This document shows positions 1 through 9,676 of a DNA stretch of 64,000 bases, in pieces. A program made the position numbers and the translations under genes. The notes beneath the pieces are model-generated. The model was given only the letters and a program-made list of their open reading frames with translations. It made no database searches and was not told the origin of the DNA. This DNA is from Anaerolineales bacterium. Lineage in GTDB: Bacteria; Chloroflexota; Anaerolineae; Anaerolineales; UBA11858. Location of the stretch: the NCBI GenBank assembly GCA_046483045.1, contig JAWODY010000084.1:6806-70805 (forward strand). Reading direction: 5' to 3'. Every line of letters begins with the position of its first letter. Position 1 is the stretch's first letter.

Positions 1-974
1 ATACCGCTTGCAAAAGTGAATGCCTTTAGTGGGATGACCTCTATGGTACCGATGCCGGTGGCATAGGGGCCCGAATCAACGTACACTCGTTTGCCCACTG
101 AAAATTGGTCTGTATCCTTTGGTACGTCAAAGTTGTCCGGGGAAGGTAAAGAGATGATTGCTTCCGGGTACTTCCCCGTGGTTCGACTATATTCCTGGGA
201 ATTGAGGGAAATTTCTTTCTCCTCGTTGGTTATCAAGAGCCTTGATGCTAAGGTGTTCATGGGCTTTTGACCGAAGCCATCGATGATGATAATGGGGTAC
301 TCCATGCTGCTGGCGGTAGGAATTAACGCGGAGGACATACTGCCCAGGATGAGACCCTTAATGGGAATGGAGGCTGCGGTAGAGAAGAACTCTGGGTCTT
401 TACAGTACCCGCCAATGGCAATCGCTCCCCTGAAACTTATGTCAACTTGCTTTGCCTGAACTTCCCCCTCGAGGTCTTTGCTCAAACGCTGCATGACGCC
501 ATAGGCGATTTTGCCATTTCCCCAAACCCCTTGGATTAAGGCGCCTACGGCTTCAATGATTACGCCTCTCTCCGGGATGATATTGGTCACCGTGCCTTTC
601 ATGCCCGCTAAGAGCTGGTAGGAGGGGGTGTCCTTTTCTAAGAGGACTTTTCCCTCGCCAGCGATTTTGACTTCACAATCCGCCGGAGCTCTGACGACAC
701 GCTGAAATAAGCCCACCGGACCGGCGATCACATCCCCTTTTGAAAGCACATCTCCCGCTTGTCGCTGGAGGAGGTCATTTGCTTTGGACGCAGATACGTT
801 CAACCCTTGGGTGAGATCGATCATGATGTGTTCCGGTTCCAGGTTCGCTTCTGCGACCACATCCGTCGGAACGACTTTCTGCATCCGGCGAGCAACCACT
901 CTTCCTAACTGGGGAAGAATTCGTTCGCGGCGGATGTTTGTTCGCGGCAGGATGTGCTTAGTGGGAGCTAACAT
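1..974 (-). CDS. hypothetical protein, partial (C-terminus lies beyond the left window edge); last visible gene of the 7093->1 operon
   Basis: My own reverse-strand translation from the ATG at 974-972 stays open to position 1 (MLAPTKHILPRTNIRRERILPQLGRVVARR...GDVIAGPVGLF...PIIIIDGFGQKPMN...). It is absent from the ORF track, presumably because it has no stop inside the window. It lies 43 nt downstream of the 1018 stop on the same strand. Confidence 0.6.
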   Translation of the reverse strand, partial: MLAPTKHILPRTNIRRERILPQLGRVVARRMQKVVPTDVVAEANLEPEHIMIDLTQGLNVSASKANDLLQRQAGDVLSKGDVIAGPVGLFQRVVRAPADCEVKIAGEGKVLLEKDTPSYQLLAGMKGTVTNIIPERGVIIEAVGALIQGVWGNGKIAYGVMQRLSKDLEGEVQAKQVDISFRGAIAIGGYCKDPEFFSTAASIPIKGLILGSMSSALIPTASSMEYPIIIIDGFGQKPMNTLASRLLITNEEKEISLNSQEYSRTTGKYPEAIISLPSPDNFDVPKDTDQFSVGKRVYVDSGPYATGIGTIEVIPLKAFTFASG

Positions 975-1017
975 TTCGATACCTTGTCCGTGTTTTCTAA
1001 CCTGATGAGAACATTTC

Positions 1018-2772
1018 TTATGCGTATTTTTCCAAGCTCGTGATCCATTTCTTTGCTCGTTTTCGATTTTTTTCGGGATCAGGGGGGAAGCGAAGGGGGC
1101 GGCCGCGAGCATCGATGATGATTCCCAATGACCCGCCCACAGCGCTGACTTTTCCAGCCTTTCCTGGCCCACCCATGCCGATATCAAAACCATGGAGAGG
1201 ACGAAGGTGGAGGGTGACCTGCTCCCCAATGTTCGTGGGAAGCACGCTTAGCGTCCCATATTTGATGTCCTTTGTAGTCCTTTCCCCATTCTGACGGGTG
1301 ATCTGCATTCGTAAAATGGGGGTTCCGAGCCGTGCATTTCCATAAGGTGCAATAACTGTGCCTAAGTTAAGAAAAGTGCTGGTTTCAATGACTTGCACTG
1401 TGAGTAAGGGATTTATATCACTGATAATTCCCAGGGATGGCAGTAAGCCATTCTGATCCAGCGCGATCGTTGTTACCCCCGCTGGTTGAAGTCCATCTAA
1501 TAAAATCAGTAAGCTTTGAGCCCGATTCGGGGCTTGCGTGATCACGCTCCCGGAGCCGATGATGGGTTCAACTGAAGGTAAGAGAGAGCCCTTTTGGTAT
1601 TCTTTGGGAATCTCGGGGAGGATATCTTTCACTGTTGTGCGGAGGATTTCTCGGGCCACAGCATGCTCAATGGCGAGTTCCTCCTGGGTCGCCGGTAAGC
1701 TGTCCGGGTAAATAGATTTGTTGTTCACGTAATCGCGAACAAATGAACTGGGTATTTTCAAAGGGAGCCAGCGTGTGATGTCCGAAACCTGAACGTGCTC
1801 GAGGATCCTTTGACAGCCTGCTCCTATCCCGAGGTTGGGTAAGACTCGCAGAGTTTCTTTGCCTTCGAATGAGGCTGCGATGGTTGTGTTCCGGGAACCA
1901 ATATCGATGCCCAGGACACCTTTATCTGGTTCATACTTTCTGCTCAAGAAACGGATCATGCGGCTGAAAGCGGTCGCTGTAGCTGTCATTTTTCCATCGG
2001 TCCAGGTAAGGACCTCACTCATCCCACCAATCTGTTTCCGCCTGATCATTTTAAATATTTCTGCCAGCTCTTTTTGAGCTGGATACATTTGTTTTTGGTT
2101 CAGAGAAGGCTGAATGTTGGGAGCGATGTGAAGGTTGCTGATTTTTCCGAGATCATCCTTTACGTCTTCCTGCAGCTCCTCATTTCCCACGTAAAGGATA
2201 TGCGTTTTTAGATCATCTTTTGTCAGGTATCCTGCTAATCCGACTACTTCAATGAGGTTGAGGATAGATTTCGAGGCCCCGCCGTTTGTCCCGCCGCTGA
2301 TGATTATCAGATCGGGACGGGTTTTCAACAAAAGGTTGATCCTATCTTCATCTTGTCTGCGGTCATTGAGAGATATCTCCTCCACGACCTGGGCGTTAAT
2401 CGTGGAAGCTAATTGATTTGCTGCAGAAATAGAAACATCTTGCAGTAGTCCCACAGTGACAACGTGGATGGGTTTACCTGCCGAGATGGTAGCTACCATA
2501 GCGTCAACACCGTTATTGTCCATGGTGCTAGGAATGATCAACCCTTCTGCATCGCTGATCATCATCCTTCCGGTTTTGTCCTGGAGGTCCTCAATCGCGT
2601 GCCAAACACATTCCGCGATATCAAAGAAAGGGGACCCTGCTGTGGAAGGCGCAGATCCCTCGGCGATAAATCTGTATTTGGTGTTGACAATATCAAACAG
2701 CAGCGCCCGTGTCGTTGAGGAACCGATATCAACTGCCAGTATGGAAGAGAGGTTCGTGTTTGTGTTTACCAT
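1018..2772 (-). CDS. MutL/GlmL-like ASKHA (actin-fold) ATPase-family protein, 584 aa
   Basis: ATG start. Two phosphate-binding-type motifs (AVDIGSSTTRA at the N-terminus, GIDIGSRNTT near residue 290) plus IISGGTNGG and IIGSGS Gly-rich motifs, typical of MutL/GlmL/EutA-like ASKHA proteins. The stop is 7 nt after the upstream gene's start region (tight coupling). Confidence 0.8.
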   Translation of the reverse strand: MVNTNTNLSSILAVDIGSSTTRALLFDIVNTKYRFIAEGSAPSTAGSPFFDIAECVWHAIEDLQDKTGRMMISDAEGLIIPSTMDNNGVDAMVATISAGKPIHVVTVGLLQDVSISAANQLASTINAQVVEEISLNDRRQDEDRINLLLKTRPDLIIISGGTNGGASKSILNLIEVVGLAGYLTKDDLKTHILYVGNEELQEDVKDDLGKISNLHIAPNIQPSLNQKQMYPAQKELAEIFKMIRRKQIGGMSEVLTWTDGKMTATATAFSRMIRFLSRKYEPDKGVLGIDIGSRNTTIAASFEGKETLRVLPNLGIGAGCQRILEHVQVSDITRWLPLKIPSSFVRDYVNNKSIYPDSLPATQEELAIEHAVAREILRTTVKDILPEIPKEYQKGSLLPSVEPIIGSGSVITQAPNRAQSLLILLDGLQPAGVTTIALDQNGLLPSLGIISDINPLLTVQVIETSTFLNLGTVIAPYGNARLGTPILRMQITRQNGERTTKDIKYGTLSVLPTNIGEQVTLHLRPLHGFDIGMGGPGKAGKVSAVGGSLGIIIDARGRPLRFPPDPEKNRKRAKKWITSLEKYA

Positions 2773-2779
2773 GATGGTC

Positions 2780-3469
2780 TCAAGGAAGGATTTTAATCTG
2801 CATTTGGTTTAGGTAATCCCAAAGGAAGGACAAACGTTCAACAAGCGCAGAAAGCGCTGATATGTAAACGCCGGCAAATAAGACGCCGAGGGTGACGGCG
2901 ATGAAAAAGTGGCCGATTTTTCCCAGGATTTGAATCAGCGGTCGCCGTCGATCCGTTTGCCCCGGCATGTGTCCCGTGCCAAAGTGAAAATAAATTAAAG
3001 TCGTCATGGTTCCCAAAACGGTCATAAGTCCGTTCAATATCGAGAATAACGTGCTTGTTTTTGTAGGGGTTTCAAAGCTATTTATCGTGCCCAGTAACTG
3101 TGGGAAAAGGGTACCTGTGATTGCGCCGCCGATCGCGGAGGCGGCTCCAATCCCGACAAGGATGGCAACCGACCAATTTCCAGCTTTTCGGAGGGGGGTT
3201 ATCTTCATGAAAAGGAATAAGCTGGGGATGAACAACATCAAAGACAACAAACGTTCTCCTCTGGTCCCTGTGAAAAGGGGCAGAAACAAACGCGGAACAA
3301 GCACGTTGTTGATGGTAATGATCACTACGTACCCAGCGGTCACGCCGATGAAGATGTGCGAGGCAAGACGGAAAAGTGGATTATCACCCAGAATATAACT
3401 GAAAACAAGCAGCGTAAACAGAAATCCCAGGGAGAGTCCGATGAAATCGCTGAGGTTTGTTGGAGACAT
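2780..3469 (-). CDS. polytopic integral membrane protein, unknown function, 229 aa
   Basis: ATG at 3469, 1 nt after the stop of the upstream gene (3471). The translation is dominated by hydrophobic helices (FLFTLLVFSYILG, IFIGVTAGYVVIITI, AILVGIGAASAIGGAITG, etc.). Confidence 0.75.
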   Translation of the reverse strand: MSPTNLSDFIGLSLGFLFTLLVFSYILGDNPLFRLASHIFIGVTAGYVVIITINNVLVPRLFLPLFTGTRGERLLSLMLFIPSLFLFMKITPLRKAGNWSVAILVGIGAASAIGGAITGTLFPQLLGTINSFETPTKTSTLFSILNGLMTVLGTMTTLIYFHFGTGHMPGQTDRRRPLIQILGKIGHFFIAVTLGVLFAGVYISALSALVERLSFLWDYLNQMQIKILP

Positions 3470-3470
3470 G

Positions 3471-5396
3471 TCAGGAAACTCCCCTCTTTTCTTTGTTTTT
3501 TCGCTGCTTGATGAGGTTCAAGATCCCATTTGCAAGCCCTCCAATGAAGACGGTGAGTATGGTGACGATGATCCCTACATTGAGAGGGAACAAGAACACC
3601 GAGGACAGGTTTGGGCTTCCGGTTAACTCTTCGTAAGCCCTCCCCCCCGGCAGTCCGGCCGCCAAACCAGAGATCTGTTGTGGGCTGTTTTGAAAATAGG
3701 GTCTTACCAAAGGTTCTGCTTGCGCGCTGACAATCATAGCCACTTTGTACCTGGAGATGTAGGGGTTGACTTGTTCGATCCACATGCGTGCCGTGGTCGG
3801 GTCGTCAGTGATAATCAGGAATAGGTCGAAATCTGACAAGGTTTGAATCTCTTTTAAGGGTGGAGAGTCCCAGGCGTTAGCACCATTGAATGCGATAGGG
3901 ACGATCTCGCGGGGGGCGATAGAGAAACTGAGGACCCCGGCAGCTTGTCCAGGAATGTAGCCAAGGTTTATATAGTCTCTCCCGTGCTGGTATTCGAACT
4001 CGGATTGTGTGTTGGATATGAAATGTTCAGCCAGTGAAGGTCCTGTGGCTTGGGTGGAAATAAAAGCCAGGTATGATTCCTGGCGCAGTAGGTGATCGAC
4101 CACCCCTGATGCTGTGGCGTTCAATTCCCCCGCTAGGGCGGGTTGGTAGTCAAAAGCGATCAGCGCCGTGTCGCGAGCTTCCATCTCGTCGATCATCTCA
4201 TACAAAGCAGCAGGTCCCTGTTCATCTTTCAGGTGACCGCCTGTGGATGGGGGGGGCACTGCTCCCCCTCCCGTAATCACACTGGCACCGACAGATATAA
4301 TGAGCACGATGGCGATCAACCAGCGTAGGACTCTTTGGGTGGCTACTGGTTTTACTTCACCTTTCGGTTTGGCTTTGCCCTCTCGAGAGATAACGTTCTC
4401 CAAGAGGGAAGCATATTCTTTTTGCGTTTTGGATACTTGTAATTCGAAGGAAAGTTTGGAACCCTCTTCCACACTCGTCTGGTCGATATCCGCCTCGGCA
4501 GGGAGGACGCTGGGAATCCCAGCCAAAGGCCCGTAGTTTTCGATGTACTCCTCGTCTTCTGCTAGCCCTGAGGTGTCTGAAGATTCAACCACGGGACGCA
4601 TGGCTTCCACCCACCCAGGTAATTCTCCGGGGGAAATATCATCTCCCGTTTCAGCTTCCTCTTTTTCCATGTCGACAGAGGTAAGCCAACTGGGCAGTTC
4701 CTCGTCAAACAAATCATCGATGACTTCATCATCTTCATCGAGCTCAAAGGGTTGGATGGGCCCTTCGCCTGCAGGTGAAGGTTCTTCATCCTCTTCCAGC
4801 CATGAGGGAAAATGTCCTTCCTTTTCCTGGGCCGGTTCGGGTGGAGCGGTTTCTTCCTCATCCTTTTCAGATAAAATCGGTTCTGCTTCTCCCGCTTCTT
4901 CCTCTTCAGATTGAAGCCAATCCGGAAGTTCCTGCTTCTCTTCAGAGGGTGTCTTTTCAACTTTCCCTTCCCCTTCGACTTCTGACATCCAGGTGGGAAA
5001 AGTTTCTCCTTCCGGGGGTTGCTGACCTTTTTCCTCCTCCACATCCAGCGCGCGAATGCGCTTTAACCAGTCGGTGTCCTCTTTTTCCTCCTCTTCTTCG
5101 GAGGGTGTTTGTAAATCGCTGGGCTCTTCCCCTTCTTCTGCTGCATGCAGGATGTCTAACCATCCCGCTTCTTCCTCATCCTCTCCGTCCGGGATATCTT
5201 CCTGTGCCTCTCCAGGTGTGGTGTCTTGGGTATTGGAGGGAAGGTCCGAGGGGGAGTCTGTGGTGTCTGGGGATGTAGAGGGTGTTTCCTGGTTTATAGA
5301 AGGGGATTGTGAAGGCAGGGGGAAACCACAGGAATCACAAACTTCTTTTCCTTCAGGATTTATTTTTCCGCAGTTTGGACATTGTATTTTAGCCAT
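3471..5396 (-). CDS. zinc-ribbon protein with a long acidic disordered region, TM helix, about 250-aa extracytoplasmic domain and C-terminal TM helix, 641 aa
   Basis: The track ORF 3471..5726 overlaps the upstream gene. The internal ATG at 5396 gives MAKIQCPNCGKINPEGKEVCDSCGF (a CxxC...CxxC zinc ribbon) and sits 5 nt after the 5402 stop. A Glu/Asp-rich region is followed by RWLIAIVLIISVGASVI (TM) and a terminal IIVTILTVFIGGLANGIL (TM). Confidence 0.8.
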   Translation of the reverse strand: MAKIQCPNCGKINPEGKEVCDSCGFPLPSQSPSINQETPSTSPDTTDSPSDLPSNTQDTTPGEAQEDIPDGEDEEEAGWLDILHAAEEGEEPSDLQTPSEEEEEKEDTDWLKRIRALDVEEEKGQQPPEGETFPTWMSEVEGEGKVEKTPSEEKQELPDWLQSEEEEAGEAEPILSEKDEEETAPPEPAQEKEGHFPSWLEEDEEPSPAGEGPIQPFELDEDDEVIDDLFDEELPSWLTSVDMEKEEAETGDDISPGELPGWVEAMRPVVESSDTSGLAEDEEYIENYGPLAGIPSVLPAEADIDQTSVEEGSKLSFELQVSKTQKEYASLLENVISREGKAKPKGEVKPVATQRVLRWLIAIVLIISVGASVITGGGAVPPPSTGGHLKDEQGPAALYEMIDEMEARDTALIAFDYQPALAGELNATASGVVDHLLRQESYLAFISTQATGPSLAEHFISNTQSEFEYQHGRDYINLGYIPGQAAGVLSFSIAPREIVPIAFNGANAWDSPPLKEIQTLSDFDLFLIITDDPTTARMWIEQVNPYISRYKVAMIVSAQAEPLVRPYFQNSPQQISGLAAGLPGGRAYEELTGSPNLSSVFLFPLNVGIIVTILTVFIGGLANGILNLIKQRKNKEKRGVS

Positions 5397-5401
5397 GTTT
5401 A

Positions 5402-6046
5402 TTAACCCCCATAGGGACGATCCGTTCCAATTAGAATACGCAAACCTGTGGCGATGGTCCCCAGAGCGATTCCCAGCAGCAGTCCGCGAGCCCCGCCTAA
5501 GGCAGGTACTTGGACGATCCACTGACGGATCTGGGTCAGAAAGGGGACTTCCGGAGTGAAAATAGACAGTGTACCGATCAATACCATGAGGACGATGAAG
5601 AAGAAAATAACAGCGTAAGTGTGCATGTTTCTGCGCAAGAAGCGCGTGGCTGCGTATGTGAGACTGATGGCCATGACAGCCATTAAGCTGGTCTCTAAAG
5701 GAAATTGAATGTACGTGAAAAGCCAACTAATGGTCTGGAAATTGGGTTGTCCGAACATATAGCTTTGGAACATGTCAAAAAAACCGATCAGGAGGGTGGC
5801 TATCAACGCGAAGACTAATATCAAGCTGTAACCGCTGTTATCGTCATTTTGAGCCATTTTGCGGAAGTGCACCGCAAAGAGGTTCAAAATTCCCACGATT
5901 AAAGCCACAGCAGCTAAGACCAATCCAGCACGGAGGAAAAGAAAACGCAGGCTGATTAAACCGGGGATAAAGTAACCGGCCAAGACGATGACCCCAACCC
6001 CAATAGCAACCGCTGTAGCAAAGGGAGTTTTGAATTTTATATTCAC
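5402..6046 (-). CDS. polytopic integral membrane protein, unknown function, 214 aa
   Basis: GTG start at 6046 overlaps the stop of the upstream gene (a GTGA 4-nt overlap at 6043-6046). The translation is strongly hydrophobic with about 6 predicted helices. Confidence 0.75.
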   Translation of the reverse strand: MNIKFKTPFATAVAIGVGVIVLAGYFIPGLISLRFLFLRAGLVLAAVALIVGILNLFAVHFRKMAQNDDNSGYSLILVFALIATLLIGFFDMFQSYMFGQPNFQTISWLFTYIQFPLETSLMAVMAISLTYAATRFLRRNMHTYAVIFFFIVLMVLIGTLSIFTPEVPFLTQIRQWIVQVPALGGARGLLLGIALGTIATGLRILIGTDRPYGG

Positions 6047-6879
6047 GAAACCCCCATTAAAATGGATTGAAAGATATCATGCATACCTAAATATTTCAGG
6101 ACGATGCCTAAAATCATCAATACGACCAGAATCCATCGGAAAATATCCTGGGTCTTTACGCTTGAAACATGCATCGGTTTCTTTCCCAGATATGCCCCGG
6201 CGGTGAATATTTCCTCTCCAATTAAGGGTTCACTGGCGGAGGCATACATGATGGCTTGGGCGGGGAGCTGGGCAGCCCCAGCTATAGTGGGGCTGTTCTG
6301 TCGTTCTCCCGCCGTGGTTAACCATGTGATTTCATTTCCATACCAGCCGGCGAGGATATTTGCTGAAACTCGATTTTCACGAATGGTCGTCAGTGTCCCC
6401 ACAGCATATGAAAAAGGCGTCAACCCTACTAATTCCCCAACGGAAGACCGTTCATGCCCTTCCGTGCTGATCGCCTTCGAGGTGCCCTGGATGATGTCCT
6501 GGGCAAGGAAGGAAATGGTTGCGTTCCCAGTCGTCGCTACAGGAGGGTAGTCACATACGGAGGAGGCTTTTATGATCTCCTGTAAAATACTTAATCCCGC
6601 TAACGCGGAAGCGGATTGAAGGCTTGTGAACCCGCCGCGGCCCAGAGAAACGTGGAGCTGGGACCCTTCCTCCACGGTTAAACCAATAACCTCATTAATC
6701 CTGCGGAAAGCCGGGATCTGACGTAGGTTATTATCTTTCTCTTGATCCCGTGTCAGGGTGAAAAAAAACATGGATCCTAAAAAGAGAAAAACGATCACGA
6801 TTCCTGTAAAGCCTGTTACCGTCACCGTGATAAACCTCCAAAGGTTATTCTGATTGGTAGGCGCGCAGGGCTTGAACAA
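6043..6879 (-). CDS. membrane protein with TM helices at both termini and a central soluble domain, unknown function, up to 278 aa
   Basis: This is the ORF-track frame. The TTG at 6879 overlaps the upstream 82-aa gene by 35 nt. A GTG at 6825 preceded by GGAGG (9-nt spacer) is a more likely start, giving 261 aa. N-terminal TM GFTGIVIVFLFLGSMFFF, C-terminal TM IFRWILVVLMILGIVL. Confidence 0.7.
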   Translation of the reverse strand: MFKPCAPTNQNNLWRFITVTVTGFTGIVIVFLFLGSMFFFTLTRDQEKDNNLRQIPAFRRINEVIGLTVEEGSQLHVSLGRGGFTSLQSASALAGLSILQEIIKASSVCDYPPVATTGNATISFLAQDIIQGTSKAISTEGHERSSVGELVGLTPFSYAVGTLTTIRENRVSANILAGWYGNEITWLTTAGERQNSPTIAGAAQLPAQAIMYASASEPLIGEEIFTAGAYLGKKPMHVSSVKTQDIFRWILVVLMILGIVLKYLGMHDIFQSILMGVS

Positions 6880-7093
6880 AGCCCCGTGTTTCTTCTGGAT
6901 CCTCTAAAATACTAGCGAGGTCAGAAGCTGTTTGGCCTGGGATGAAGGTGCTTAAAATGGGCTCGCTCAAGTACATAACCTGGGCTCCTACCAGGCTGAG
7001 TGGGCCCAGCGCTTCAAGCAATGCAGCTGTGACATGATGCAACCCCCATTTGTGGAGGTTGCCGCTTAGTTTGTCCCAATTTTCCTTTCCCAT
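6845..7093 (-). CDS. small hypothetical protein, 82 aa, first gene of the operon
   Basis: ATG at 7093. It is followed on the same strand by six tightly packed genes, and a 169-nt AT-rich gap lies upstream (7094-7262). There is no recognisable motif. Confidence 0.55.
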   Translation of the reverse strand: MGKENWDKLSGNLHKWGLHHVTAALLEALGPLSLVGAQVMYLSEPILSTFIPGQTASDLASILEDPEETRGFVQALRAYQSE

Positions 7094-7262
7094 AGCTAAA
7101 AATTAGTATAGCATAGTTTCCCGGAATAAGAACCGCCTAAAAAGGATGCAAATATGCTTTCTGGTACAGCAGGGATGTTATTTCTGGGCCTTAGAATCCT
7201 TATCAGGAAAAGTTAAGATATTATATATATAAGTCTATACAACTGCCCACTCTTTATGGGAG

Positions 7263-8210: not shown

Positions 8211-8317
8211 GGGGCCATCTCCTATGATACAGACCCCAGTTTTCCCCGTATCGACGGGTGAGCATCGGGGTTAAATAAAAATGAGACAGTTCGCAAATGA
8301 AGGAAAAAGGATTTATC

Positions 8318-9676
8318 ATGAAAACTTCAGTCAAGAAGGCCAACCTTAAAAAGAGAGACCGCTGGTTGTGGTATTTATATGATGTCGGAAATTCAGCTTA
8401 CGCCGCTGTGGTCATTCTCGCTATTTATGCAGCATATTTCAAAGAACATGTTGTTGGCGGGGTGGAAGGCTCTCGATTATGGGGGATTTCCGTGGGGATC
8501 GCTATGCTGGTGGTAGCCATTATTGCTCCCGTTCTGGGTGTGATTGCTGATTTCGCGGGCAGCAAAAAGCGTTTTTTACTCTTTTTCACGATCCTCTCCT
8601 GCGGTTCCACAGCCAGTTTGTTTTTTGTTCAAAAAGGGGATATCCTTTTAGGGATGGTGCTTTTCATTTTAGCTGAAATCGGATACCGCGGGGGTCAGGT
8701 CTTTTACAATTCGCTCCTGCCGGAAATCGCGGATCGAGAAGAATTTGGTCGGGTATCCGGTTATGGTTGGGCCATTGGTTTACTGGGGGGCATTGTGTGC
8801 TTGCTTCTCGTTCTGGGATTGGTGATGAGCTTTGAAGGTACATGGATGGTCCGGTTTTCCTTGGTGATCACAGCCCTGTATTTTGCGATCTTTGCAACCC
8901 CATTATTCCTGTGGTTGCGAGAGAAGGCAGAACATAAACCTTTGCAGAAAGGGGAAAACTATTTGACTGTCGCGGTAGATCGGTTAAAAAAGACTTTTAA
9001 CTCCGTTCGGGATCACGGGGAGTTCATCAAATACATCATCGCTTTTTTGATATATAACGATGGGATCTTGATGATGATCAACTTCGCAGCTATCTTTGGT
9101 GTGGTCATGTTTGGCCTGGCCCAGCAGCAGATCATTCTCTTCATGATCCTCATTCAATTCACAAGTGTAATCGGCGCGTTTTTCTCGGGGTGGTTAACCG
9201 ACTTCATTTCTGCCAAGAAAACGCTGGTCATTTTCCTGATCTTGATGTTGGGTACAGCGGTGGGGTTGTTTTTCACCGAAACCGTCCGGAATTTTTACAT
9301 CATGGGCGGGTTGGCAGGGTTGGCCCTCTCCTCCGTGCAGGCAGTGAGCCGGGCCATGGTTGGAAAATTGAGTCCTGCTGGGCGCAGTGCGGAATTTTAC
9401 GGCTTTTTTGCGGTTGCCGGTCGGACTTCTTCGTTTATCGGCCCTACGGTGTATGGTTGGGTAGCGGCAGAGACCGCTTTATGGTTTGAAGCTCGAGGTA
9501 CGACGGATTCCTTCCTGTGGTTTGAATTTTTAAGGGAGGGGACTAATTTTGCAGAGCAAATTGGCCAGCGAGCAGCGATTATCCCTGTGGTTCTTTTTCT
9601 CGTGGTCGGGTTAGCGCTCTTGTACTCTGTGGATGAAAAAGGCGCAGCAGCCCGGCTGGATGGGCCGACATCGTGA
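8318..9676 (+). CDS. MFS transporter, UMF1/Atg22-like family
   Basis: There are about 12 hydrophobic segments. The N-terminus RWLWYLYDVGNSAYAAVV is typical of Atg22-like MFS proteins. ATG 8318 has an AAGGA-type RBS, whereas the track start 8297 has none. Confidence 0.8.
   Translation: MKTSVKKANLKKRDRWLWYLYDVGNSAYAAVVILAIYAAYFKEHVVGGVEGSRLWGISVGIAMLVVAIIAPVLGVIADFAGSKKRFLLFFTILSCGSTASLFFVQKGDILLGMVLFILAEIGYRGGQVFYNSLLPEIADREEFGRVSGYGWAIGLLGGIVCLLLVLGLVMSFEGTWMVRFSLVITALYFAIFATPLFLWLREKAEHKPLQKGENYLTVAVDRLKKTFNSVRDHGEFIKYIIAFLIYNDGILMMINFAAIFGVVMFGLAQQQIILFMILIQFTSVIGAFFSGWLTDFISAKKTLVIFLILMLGTAVGLFFTETVRNFYIMGGLAGLALSSVQAVSRAMVGKLSPAGRSAEFYGFFAVAGRTSSFIGPTVYGWVAAETALWFEARGTTDSFLWFEFLREGTNFAEQIGQRAAIIPVVLFLVVGLALLYSVDEKGAAARLDGPTS

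Follow-up and report, generated by a model that had tools for sequence, protein, structure and literature searches.

Why should a protein resembling GlmL, an accessory protein of glutamate mutase, be encoded among four membrane proteins with no mutase or cobalamin gene near the cluster? The question is raised by one end of a 64,000-nucleotide stretch of DNA from an Anaerolineales bacterium (Chloroflexota; Anaerolineae; UBA11858; GenBank assembly GCA_046483045.1, contig JAWODY010000084.1, positions 6,806 to 70,805 of the forward strand), the whole of which we call the window. Its positions 1-7093 hold six complete open reading frames (ORFs) and a partial one, all on the minus strand, which an earlier sequence-only reading had described as seven coupled genes around an actin-fold protein that fit no characterised system. 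We labelled the products, in gene order, A (82 amino acids), B (a DUF6754 protein, 260), C (214), D (641), E (229), F (the GlmL-like protein, 584) and G (352), with H (192) beyond the window edge; D' denotes the conserved part of D. Our analysis confirms all seven genes, places them in a single operon and shows that the cluster is the Anaerolineae version of a seven-gene system common to many bacterial phyla and without a characterised counterpart. What this system does is harder to say, and we weigh a tentative model in which F energises a membrane complex against several alternatives.

Seven genes in one operon

The ORF list and translations agreed with the minus-strand frames as first read, including the partial ORF (1-974) that stays open to the window edge. 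Five junctions also stood when the sequence was read again: B and C overlap by four nucleotides (GTGA, 6043-6046), D and E are separated by a single nucleotide (TGA-C-ATG, 3469/3471), and gaps of 5, 7 and 43 nucleotides separate C from D (5396/5402), E from F (2772/2780) and F from G (974/1018). The junction between A and B had been left as either a 35-nucleotide overlap or a 19-nucleotide gap. A GTG codon at 6825 is preceded by a GGAGG Shine-Dalgarno sequence, and both gene callers and more than 100 homologues give B a length of 260 amino acids, so B most likely starts at this codon. The A/B junction is therefore the 19-nucleotide gap and not the overlap, and the 278 residues first given for B are reduced to 260.

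Three contigs that are 97% identical to the window (L001-L003) extend the operon beyond the window edge, confirming that a single tightly packed unit runs past it. They supply 28 more codons of gene G, of which 324 of 352 lie in the window, followed by the eighth gene, H, after which a convergent phosphoglucomutase gene closes the operon. Extension to the left, as the sequence-only reading had proposed, thus located the operon end after H, and its count of seven genes holds for the window while the unit in Anaerolineae has eight. On the other side, the AT-rich gap upstream of A (7094-7262, minus strand, GC fraction ~0.44) is the probable promoter and leader, consistent with the start of transcription first placed there. 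It contains the best sigma-70-like match of the 8.3-kb region (7249-7220, -35 TGGGCA and -10 TATAAT, 10 of 12 positions), in a region whose total of promoter-like sites is not above shuffle expectation. No Rfam family was found in the window leader, and Rfam matches in six other loci were to tRNAs only.

Two modules kept together across phyla

A scan of one genome per GTDB species, seeded with an F alignment, found relatives of the Anaerolineae-type F in at least 561 species-representative genomes. The best 80 of these at least 561 loci were analysed; all come from Anaerolineae-type metagenome-assembled genomes (MAGs), among them an Anaerolinea thermophila bin and a complete chromosome, with F proteins 43-78% identical. 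The order A-B-C-D-E-F-G-H was kept in all 80, as far as the contigs reach (phmmer), and because all products have same-order homologues in 80 genomes the cluster is not a chance assembly. Close F homologues of ~585 amino acids number in the hundreds, the named ones being from Anaerolineales.

Profile hidden Markov models built from the 80 Anaerolineae loci were used on distant loci. The DUF6754 family of B comprises 1468 clusters at 50% identity, with source names from Bacillota, Deltaproteobacteria, Acidobacteriota, Elusimicrobiota and WOR-3. Five distant loci (L085-L089) proved to hold a core only, in the order B-C-D'-E (profile E values 1e-19 to 4e-41), and profile searches found no F within 10 kb of it; one of these loci comes from Elusimicrobiota, one from WOR-3, and another holds a relative of a Bacillota-labelled protein. 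Other distant loci hold the trio A-F-G as well. L090 has the same eight-gene order as Anaerolineae, including a D with a zinc ribbon; L091 reads A-B-C-D'-E-F-G, its D' being without the ribbon; and in L092 A-F-G is followed by a PMT_2 GT-C glycosyltransferase gene and then by B-C-D'-E. One of the trio-plus-core loci is syntenic with an Elusimicrobiota locus. Across L085-L092 the C profile matched with E values of 7e-10 to 4e-49 and the E profile with 1e-19 to 5e-51, and the A profile matched in L090-L092 with 1e-9 to 5e-15.

A metagenome scan seeded with the F proteins of L091 and L092 returned at least 505 stretches, from which 80 loci (61-93% identity) were analysed. Here the genes run A-F-G-B-C-D'-E or F-G-A-B-C-D'-E, so that together with A-B-C-D'-E-F-G the trio adjoins the core in three orders overall. 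All seven genes were present in 16 of the 18 metagenome loci whose F is flanked on each side by 6.5 kb or more, A lay beside F in every one of the 41 loci with room for it, and G followed F in 38 of 41. F clusters carry the names Nitrospirota or Nitrospira (one 90% cluster has 883 members) and Marinimicrobia. Source labels of the system thus comprise Nitrospirota/Nitrospira, Marinimicrobia, Elusimicrobiota, WOR-3, Acidobacteriota, Deltaproteobacteria and Bacillota, and with Chloroflexota they place it in at least six bacterial phyla. Conservation of the neighbourhood, which had been put forward as a check, is therefore seen both in Chloroflexota (80/80 loci) and in other phyla (16/18 metagenome loci).

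Ancestrally the unit comprises seven genes, which fall into two separable modules, A-F-G and B-C-D'-E. Their linkage persists through three gene orders and in several phyla, indicating that the two modules share a function, although the core can also occur by itself.

F is a member of the ASKHA superfamily and differs from GlmL

Residues 11-464 of F (1381-2742, minus strand) match the Pfam MutL family PF13941 with 233.7 bits over profile positions 1-448 of 450, and carry the motifs DIGSSTTR, GGTNGG, DIGSRNTT and GSGS. Residues D15, G17, D290, G292 and G408 are invariant among 28 homologues. In F proteins from outside Chloroflexota the motifs are canonical (DCGSTTTK, GGTDGG, DIGGATTD and GSGG), in contrast to the degenerate phosphate-2 motif of Anaerolineae, DIGSRNTT. 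An AlphaFold2 model of F had a predicted local distance difference test (pLDDT) score of 67, and its Foldseek matches were almost all ASKHA proteins (E values 6e-8 to 1e-4, probability up to 1.00, with low template-modelling scores), led by N-methylhydantoinase and by acetophenone and acetone carboxylases, followed by Ppx/GppA, DnaK, PilM and FtsA, with MreB also present. A PDB sequence search with F returned nothing, and the FtsA family PF14450 scored 12.8 bits against a cutoff of 31.8 (E value 0.16), with no match to another actin-like family. F therefore combines the family model and fold of the ASKHA superfamily with its phosphate-1, phosphate-2 and adenosine motifs, as first proposed for this protein from its letters.

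Residues 465-584 (1018-1380, minus strand) lie outside the Pfam match and form a beta-rich domain with a terminal helix, modelled at a pLDDT of ~80-90. Anaerolineae conserve the motifs FD[IV]GMGGP and D[AT]RGRP there, and L091 and L092 retain the domain. When F was compared with annotated GlmL genes by tblastn, the alignment ended at F residue 380-483, and at ~476 in the best case. Judged by these alignments, residues 465-584 represent a family-specific domain without counterpart in true GlmL.

GlmL, or MutL, is the accessory protein of glutamate (methylaspartate) mutase and is related to the Or-4 protein of ornithine degradation. It shares PF13941 with F over the first ~460 residues, and both have the ASKHA fold with phosphate and adenosine motifs; F differs in its additional C-terminal domain of ~120 amino acids and in its neighbours, A, G and the four membrane proteins. 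If F were nonetheless a true GlmL/MutL, a reactivase or chaperone for a coenzyme-B12-dependent mutase whose gene lies elsewhere, the membrane genes would have no connection with it beyond their position. The MutL domain on F and database names such as 'glutamate mutase L' and 'methylaspartate mutase' point that way. However, F falls far below the cutoffs of all three curated GlmL NCBIfam models, which include NF040745 and TIGR01319 (107.7 bits against 475 and 82.1 against 204), the other comparison being 87.3 against 600, and copies from outside Chloroflexota also stay below them (215-242 against 475, 155-173 against 204). F is only 26-30% identical to annotated GlmL, and the match ends ahead of its C-terminal domain. 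The reference GlmL locus reads glmS-glmL-glmE-lyase-adenosyltransferase, the lyase being methylaspartate ammonia-lyase, and no glmS, glmE or lyase context appears in the gene lists of L001-L004 and L090-L092, in keeping with the first impression that no mutase, lyase or cobalamin gene is adjacent. The constant partners of F are instead A, G and the membrane core. A role of F as a true GlmL is thus almost certainly wrong.

F genes in four loci (L098, L109, L127 and L148, from Nitrospira/Nitrospirota and Marinimicrobia MAGs) and in public records are labelled glutamate mutase L or methylaspartate mutase. Since A, G and the core stand beside these genes and the scores lie below the GlmL cutoffs, this labelling of Nitrospira/Nitrospirota and Marinimicrobia F is probably a systematic mis-annotation. 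Such names can introduce a spurious glutamate-fermentation or B12 pathway into metabolic reconstructions.

The companions A and G

A (6845-7093, minus strand) is a small helical protein and the constant companion of F. Its core, FLE..PL.FLG.Q...F..P...LE, is conserved across phyla, hydrophobic and hairpin-like, and it matches no Pfam or NCBIfam family.

G, whose first 324 of 352 codons occupy 1-974 (minus strand), had been listed as a further soluble protein, a description that we can refine to a barrel-sandwich-hybrid N-domain, probably of RnfC_N type, a central alpha/beta region and a C-terminal KOW/SH3-like domain. Among 39 family members, Pfam matches were to RnfC_N in 32 (best E value 3e-7), Biotin_lipoyl in 25, KOW in 21 and NQRA_N in 10; the copy in the window and in L001 matched KOW only, with no RnfC_N match above E 0.1. 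A comparison with residues 7-94 of Escherichia coli RsxC gave a weak hhalign match (E value 0.0067). Against the PDB, the G profile matched Spt5/NusG KOW domains only, apart from a chance match to a Cpl-7 repeat. No lysine is conserved at the hairpin in the family alignment, and G is therefore not a biotin or lipoyl carrier.

The membrane core and its Chloroflexota-type additions

B (6043-6825, minus strand) matches DUF6754 (PF20539) with 93.6 bits against a threshold of 27, over positions 11-253 of 257, and copies from outside Chloroflexota reach 355-388 bits. Hydropathy gives two transmembrane (TM) helices, one at each end as originally noted, enclosing a Rossmann-like domain. Positive charges are absent before TM1 and a cluster of arginine and lysine follows it, while one longer B from outside Chloroflexota has a signal-peptide-like N-terminus and ~130 extra residues ahead of TM1; on these grounds we place the N-terminus of B outside and the DUF6754 domain in the cytoplasm. 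Another B has a weak fn3 match below the Pfam cutoff. The AlphaFold2 model of B (pLDDT 86, predicted template-modelling score 0.80) is a Rossmann-like alpha/beta sandwich. Among 50 diverse members, E52, G62, G160, E165, G203 and D227 are invariant, and conserved residues include an H-x-S-x-G-x-G loop after strand 1 and others after later strands; in Rossmann-like folds the loops after strands are the usual ligand sites. We also considered B as a cobalamin-binding partner of a GlmL-like protein, an idea that gained no support, as no B12-binding domain was found among the 50 Foldseek matches listed for B. DUF6754 had been a name without an attached function, and its members now gain a topology, a Rossmann-like fold and the constant partners C, D' and E.

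C (5402-6046, minus strand) and E (2780-3469, minus strand) are polytopic membrane proteins, as first described, with five TM helices by hydropathy in C (counted overall as 5-6) and six in E. Motifs of C shared across phyla are ASAAYRAFRAR and GIER.Y. Neither protein matches a Pfam or NCBIfam family, C has no similarity to RsxA or RsxE, and no paralogy was detected among the components (B and D', C and E, or others).

The conserved part of D is D' (3471-4346, minus strand), which consists of a TM helix, a ~230-residue alpha/beta domain, a second TM helix and a basic tail. Hydropathy places the helices at D residues ~351-369 and 600-618, so that D, which had been called bitopic, has two TM helices around the domain. 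In other phyla D' stands alone as a protein of 273-289 amino acids (profile E values 5e-19 to 2e-34). Its near-invariant features are DRR, E70, H81, GAAEYE and H252, along with intramembrane histidine and asparagine residues, and it has no Pfam or PDB match. Because DRR and a TM helix open D', and its second TM helix and basic tail close it, its alpha/beta domain is predicted to face outward.

Ahead of D' lie the two features for which D had first been singled out, and both are present. A zinc ribbon of the form CPxCG...CxxC occupies residues 6-27 (5316-5381, minus strand; Zn_Ribbon_1 E value 1e-4, below cutoff), and the motif C..C(x8-20)C..C is present in 55 full-length homologues. It is followed by an acidic disordered tail (4347-5315, minus strand) with seven motif copies, aspartate and glutamate making up 20% of the protein. 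The consensus in the tail is E-[LIV]-P-D-W-L-x-x-[LM]-R, with 3-23 copies (median 11) in the 55 full-length tails; at the 576 tryptophan sites of these tails, proline occurs at -2 in 74%, aspartate at -1 in 62% and leucine at +1 in 75%. Within the 64-kb window, clusters of ELPDWL-type motifs occur only in the D tail. Homologues of D are ~540 to 1060 amino acids long in total, with tails of variable length. The zinc ribbon and acidic tail are a Chloroflexota-type addition to a conserved TM-domain-TM protein and not part of the core.

In one locus (L042:7144-9996) a single ORF covers D and E, uninterrupted by a stop codon or a run of N; it is either a genuine fusion or the result of an indel error in a long-read MAG. 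A genuine fusion would support direct contact between D and E and a cytoplasmic N-terminus of E. Apparent fusions of A with F (L118) and of G with H (L022) were artefacts of N runs.

H, the other addition, lies just past window position 1 (L001:12922-13500, plus strand in L001) and has an acidic N-terminus, a TM helix and a Thr/Pro-rich linker. Its C-terminus in L001 consists of LPDTG, a hydrophobic stretch and an RRLR tail, the pattern of an LPXTG sortase substrate. Of 83 Anaerolineae homologues, 66 carry the motif [LIV]Px[TSA]G, and close variants occur in most of the others. Such a protein would be both membrane-anchored and wall-linked.

Comparison with known systems

No characterised system resembles the cluster beyond the level of a superfamily or a single domain, in agreement with the sequence-only reading, and family, defence and structure searches matched none. 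Defence models (PADLOC) gave no match for A-G and one weak, chance-level match for the low-complexity H. F had no match in a phage collection, and the matches in a plasmid collection were true GlmL genes only. Literature searches for DUF6754, PF13941 and TIGR01319 in the library used returned nothing on these families and nothing relevant to the system, and none of its papers describes the repeated motif of the D tail.

Other partial likenesses run in three directions. The ATPase subunits of hydantoinase A, oxoprolinase, and acetone and acetophenone carboxylases give the best fold matches to F and belong to the same ASKHA branch as the MutL family; they differ in having no sequence-level family match to F and in being soluble, with no link to membrane proteins, and F has no HyuB-type partner. 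PilM-PilN-PilO-PilC, FtsA-FtsN and MreB-RodZ-MreCD have a like layout, in which a cytoplasmic actin-fold ATPase is accompanied by polytopic proteins and by membrane proteins that bear cytoplasmic peptide tails and outer domains. However, homology to these platforms exists only at the superfamily level, the membrane partners are unrelated, and a tail with repeats occurs in Chloroflexota-type loci only. With RnfC and NqrA, G probably shares the barrel-sandwich-hybrid domain at its start and, like NqrA, it has no obvious cofactor motifs; the rest of G, with its central alpha/beta and KOW domains, differs, and no Rnf/Nqr membrane subunits were found.

A working model and its alternatives

With a probability that we put at roughly 0.45, the system is an ATP-driven cytoplasmic module that docks on a four-protein membrane complex and powers translocation or remodelling. 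B, C, D and E would form one complex across the cytoplasmic membrane, and A, F and G would dock at its cytoplasmic face, on the B domain and in Chloroflexota also on the repeat tail of D, which might be read by the KOW/SH3-like domain of G or the C-terminal domain of F. ATP binding and hydrolysis by F would then drive a conformational cycle of the membrane complex that reaches the outer domain of D. The output would most likely be a substrate moved across or into the envelope, with the outer domain as the site of binding or hand-over, and in Chloroflexota the unit would be tethered to the cell wall by H. For this model speak the linkage of the modules, the retained ATPase signature of F, the conserved residues of B at likely ligand sites, and a predicted topology with parts on either face of the membrane, in which the zinc ribbon of D, or DRR in other phyla, is cytoplasmic. 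We favour translocation or another envelope role over a cytoskeletal one because characterised members of the GlmL/hydantoinase branch of F are enzymes or reactivases rather than filament formers, because the core has two polytopic subunits and an outward-facing alpha/beta domain, and because the source labels of the system include non-filamentous groups. The enzymes and reactivases of this branch pry open or activate their partners. The bolder claim, that a GlmL-type actin-fold ATPase with A and G energises B, C, D' and E as a new class of envelope machine, is doubtful at present. If it were true, the machine would be the first case of a transporter or translocase powered by an ASKHA ATPase and not by an ABC, AAA+, P-type or rotary motor.

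Several observations weigh against an ATP-driven envelope complex. Given its degenerate DIGSRNTT motif, F in Anaerolineae may hydrolyse ATP slowly or serve as a nucleotide switch, and the characterised relatives of F are soluble enzymes and reactivases, not motors of membrane machines. C, D' and E match none of the known families of transporters or translocases, and Foldseek of the B model gave generic Rossmann-like matches only, none of them significant (best E value 0.024, template-modelling score at most 0.38). The modules also occur apart: five core-only loci indicate that the membrane core can be functional, or encoded, separately from the ATPase, and a few metagenome loci (L136 and L168) have A-F or A-F-G without a core nearby. 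The neighbouring genes give no consistent functional clue, and we infer everything past gene linkage, fold assignment and predicted topology from sequences and models.

Shared function could also be metabolic, with B-C-D'-E as an uptake transporter, the outer domain of D as its tethered substrate-binding domain, and A-F-G as a soluble ATP-dependent enzyme of hydantoinase, oxoprolinase or carboxylase type for the imported compound, linked to the transporter by a common pathway and not through physical contact. This is what the best fold matches of F, to N-methylhydantoinase, acetophenone carboxylase and acetone carboxylase, would suggest, and the ability of the core to occur without F fits as well, as do the peptide and amide catabolism genes around three core-only loci (L085, L088 and L089) and an Opp-type ABC system between F and G in L117. 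However, those three loci belong to related lineages and do not provide independent contexts, and the neighbours in Anaerolineae and in Nitrospirota- and Marinimicrobia-labelled loci are housekeeping genes, not catabolic ones. No HyuB-type or other catalytic partner was detected, A and G alone accompanying F; C, D' and E match no transporter family; and the stable local synteny is unlike the multi-paralogue pattern of nutrient transporters. We consider a metabolic operon unlikely on balance. Were F instead to polymerise like FtsA, PilM or MreB, the cluster would be a cytoskeletal or morphogenetic scaffold, in line with the cytoskeletal, division or secretion machine of the sequence-only reading. 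The D tail would act like the peptides of PilN, FtsN or RodZ, and the scaffold would organise division, elongation, septal junctions or some surface apparatus of filamentous cells. The ASKHA fold, the presence of PilM, FtsA and MreB among the fold matches, membrane partners with cytoplasmic tails of repeated short motifs and an LPXTG wall-linked partner in Anaerolineae are all consistent with such a scaffold, and most of the 80 metagenome loci, with source labels that include Nitrospirota and Marinimicrobia, encode an F that shares 61-69% identity with the L092 copy, a constraint expected of multi-partner proteins. Yet F lies in the GlmL/hydantoinase branch, in which we know of no filament-forming member, and stays well below the FtsA cutoff (12.8 against 31.8 bits). 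The motif-rich tail and H are confined to the Chloroflexota-type loci seen and so are not part of the core mechanism, Nitrospira and Marinimicrobia, both among the source labels, are non-filamentous groups, and no dcw, mre or pil genes lie nearby in loci with listed genes. A scaffold is accordingly a distinctly improbable reading.

An ion-translocating complex of Rnf/Nqr type would assign G to RnfC/NqrA, C and E to the 6-TM subunits, D' to the TM-anchored outer subunit RnfG/NqrC and B to the TM-anchored cytoplasmic subunit RnfB/NqrF. Subunit sizes and topologies do run parallel to Rnf, and the RnfC_N and NQRA_N matches of G family members (32/39 and 10/39), with the weak RsxC match, also speak for this assignment. 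It is very improbable, however, as hhalign detected no homology between C and RsxA or RsxE, or between D' and RsxG, C and E are not detectable paralogues, and RnfD/NqrB has no counterpart. Beyond the G N-domain there was no Rnf/Nqr, FMN_bind or Fe-S Pfam match and no conserved cysteine cluster in B or G, and an ASKHA ATPase has no parallel in Rnf.

If the two modules work together as the envelope model proposes, they would represent a new coupling of ATP to a membrane process. Conserved operons without an assigned function are common. Here A, C, D', E and G make up at least five additional families that no Pfam or NCBIfam model covers, and Nitrospira, Marinimicrobia/SAR406, Anaerolineae and Acidobacteriota are ecologically important groups. 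Given its wide distribution, the strong constraint on F and the frequent mis-annotation, the system merits experimental follow-up.

Neighbouring genes

No further universally linked gene was found around the cluster; the neighbours detected are all lineage-specific (CdsA, a YegS-type lipid kinase, an RlpA-like DPBB protein, Memo, KpsF, Tll0287-like and PMT_2 proteins). A Memo-like gene adjoins the cluster in ten loci (L098:16860-18347, L087:14304-15749 and eight others), two of them with a Nitrospirota-labelled F and one with a WOR-3-labelled B, and L087 also has an AMMECR1 match; the gene may be a functional partner or a matter of local synteny. Insertions between G and B comprise the PMT_2-type GT-C glycosyltransferase of L092 (7487-9667) and Tll0287-like genes (PF11845) in L119 (13111-13896), L138 (3753-4508) and L143 (4752-6306), while an Opp-type ABC binding protein and two permeases lie between F and G in L117 (3122-7408). 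The flanks of L085, L088 and L089 encode peptidase M20, an Asp/Glu-type racemase, gamma-glutamyltranspeptidase, MlrC, creatininase, dipeptidase M19 and beta-lactamase-fold proteins, which hints at peptide or cyclic-amide use in that lineage.

Upstream of the operon in the window, a class-I fumarate hydratase alpha-subunit gene (PF05681; 7263-8149, plus strand) is spread over frames 3, 1 and 2 relative to an intact copy in L004, and in the 97%-identical L001 ~715 bp of the same gene are deleted, leaving its last ~58 codons. This looks like gene decay in the lineage or sequencing frameshifts. Past the fumarase gene, and divergent from the operon, lies an MFS transporter gene (8297-9676, plus strand; ATG22/MFS_1-type in the L001 and L004 lists), and the flank on this side is syntenic in L004, where F is 58% identical.

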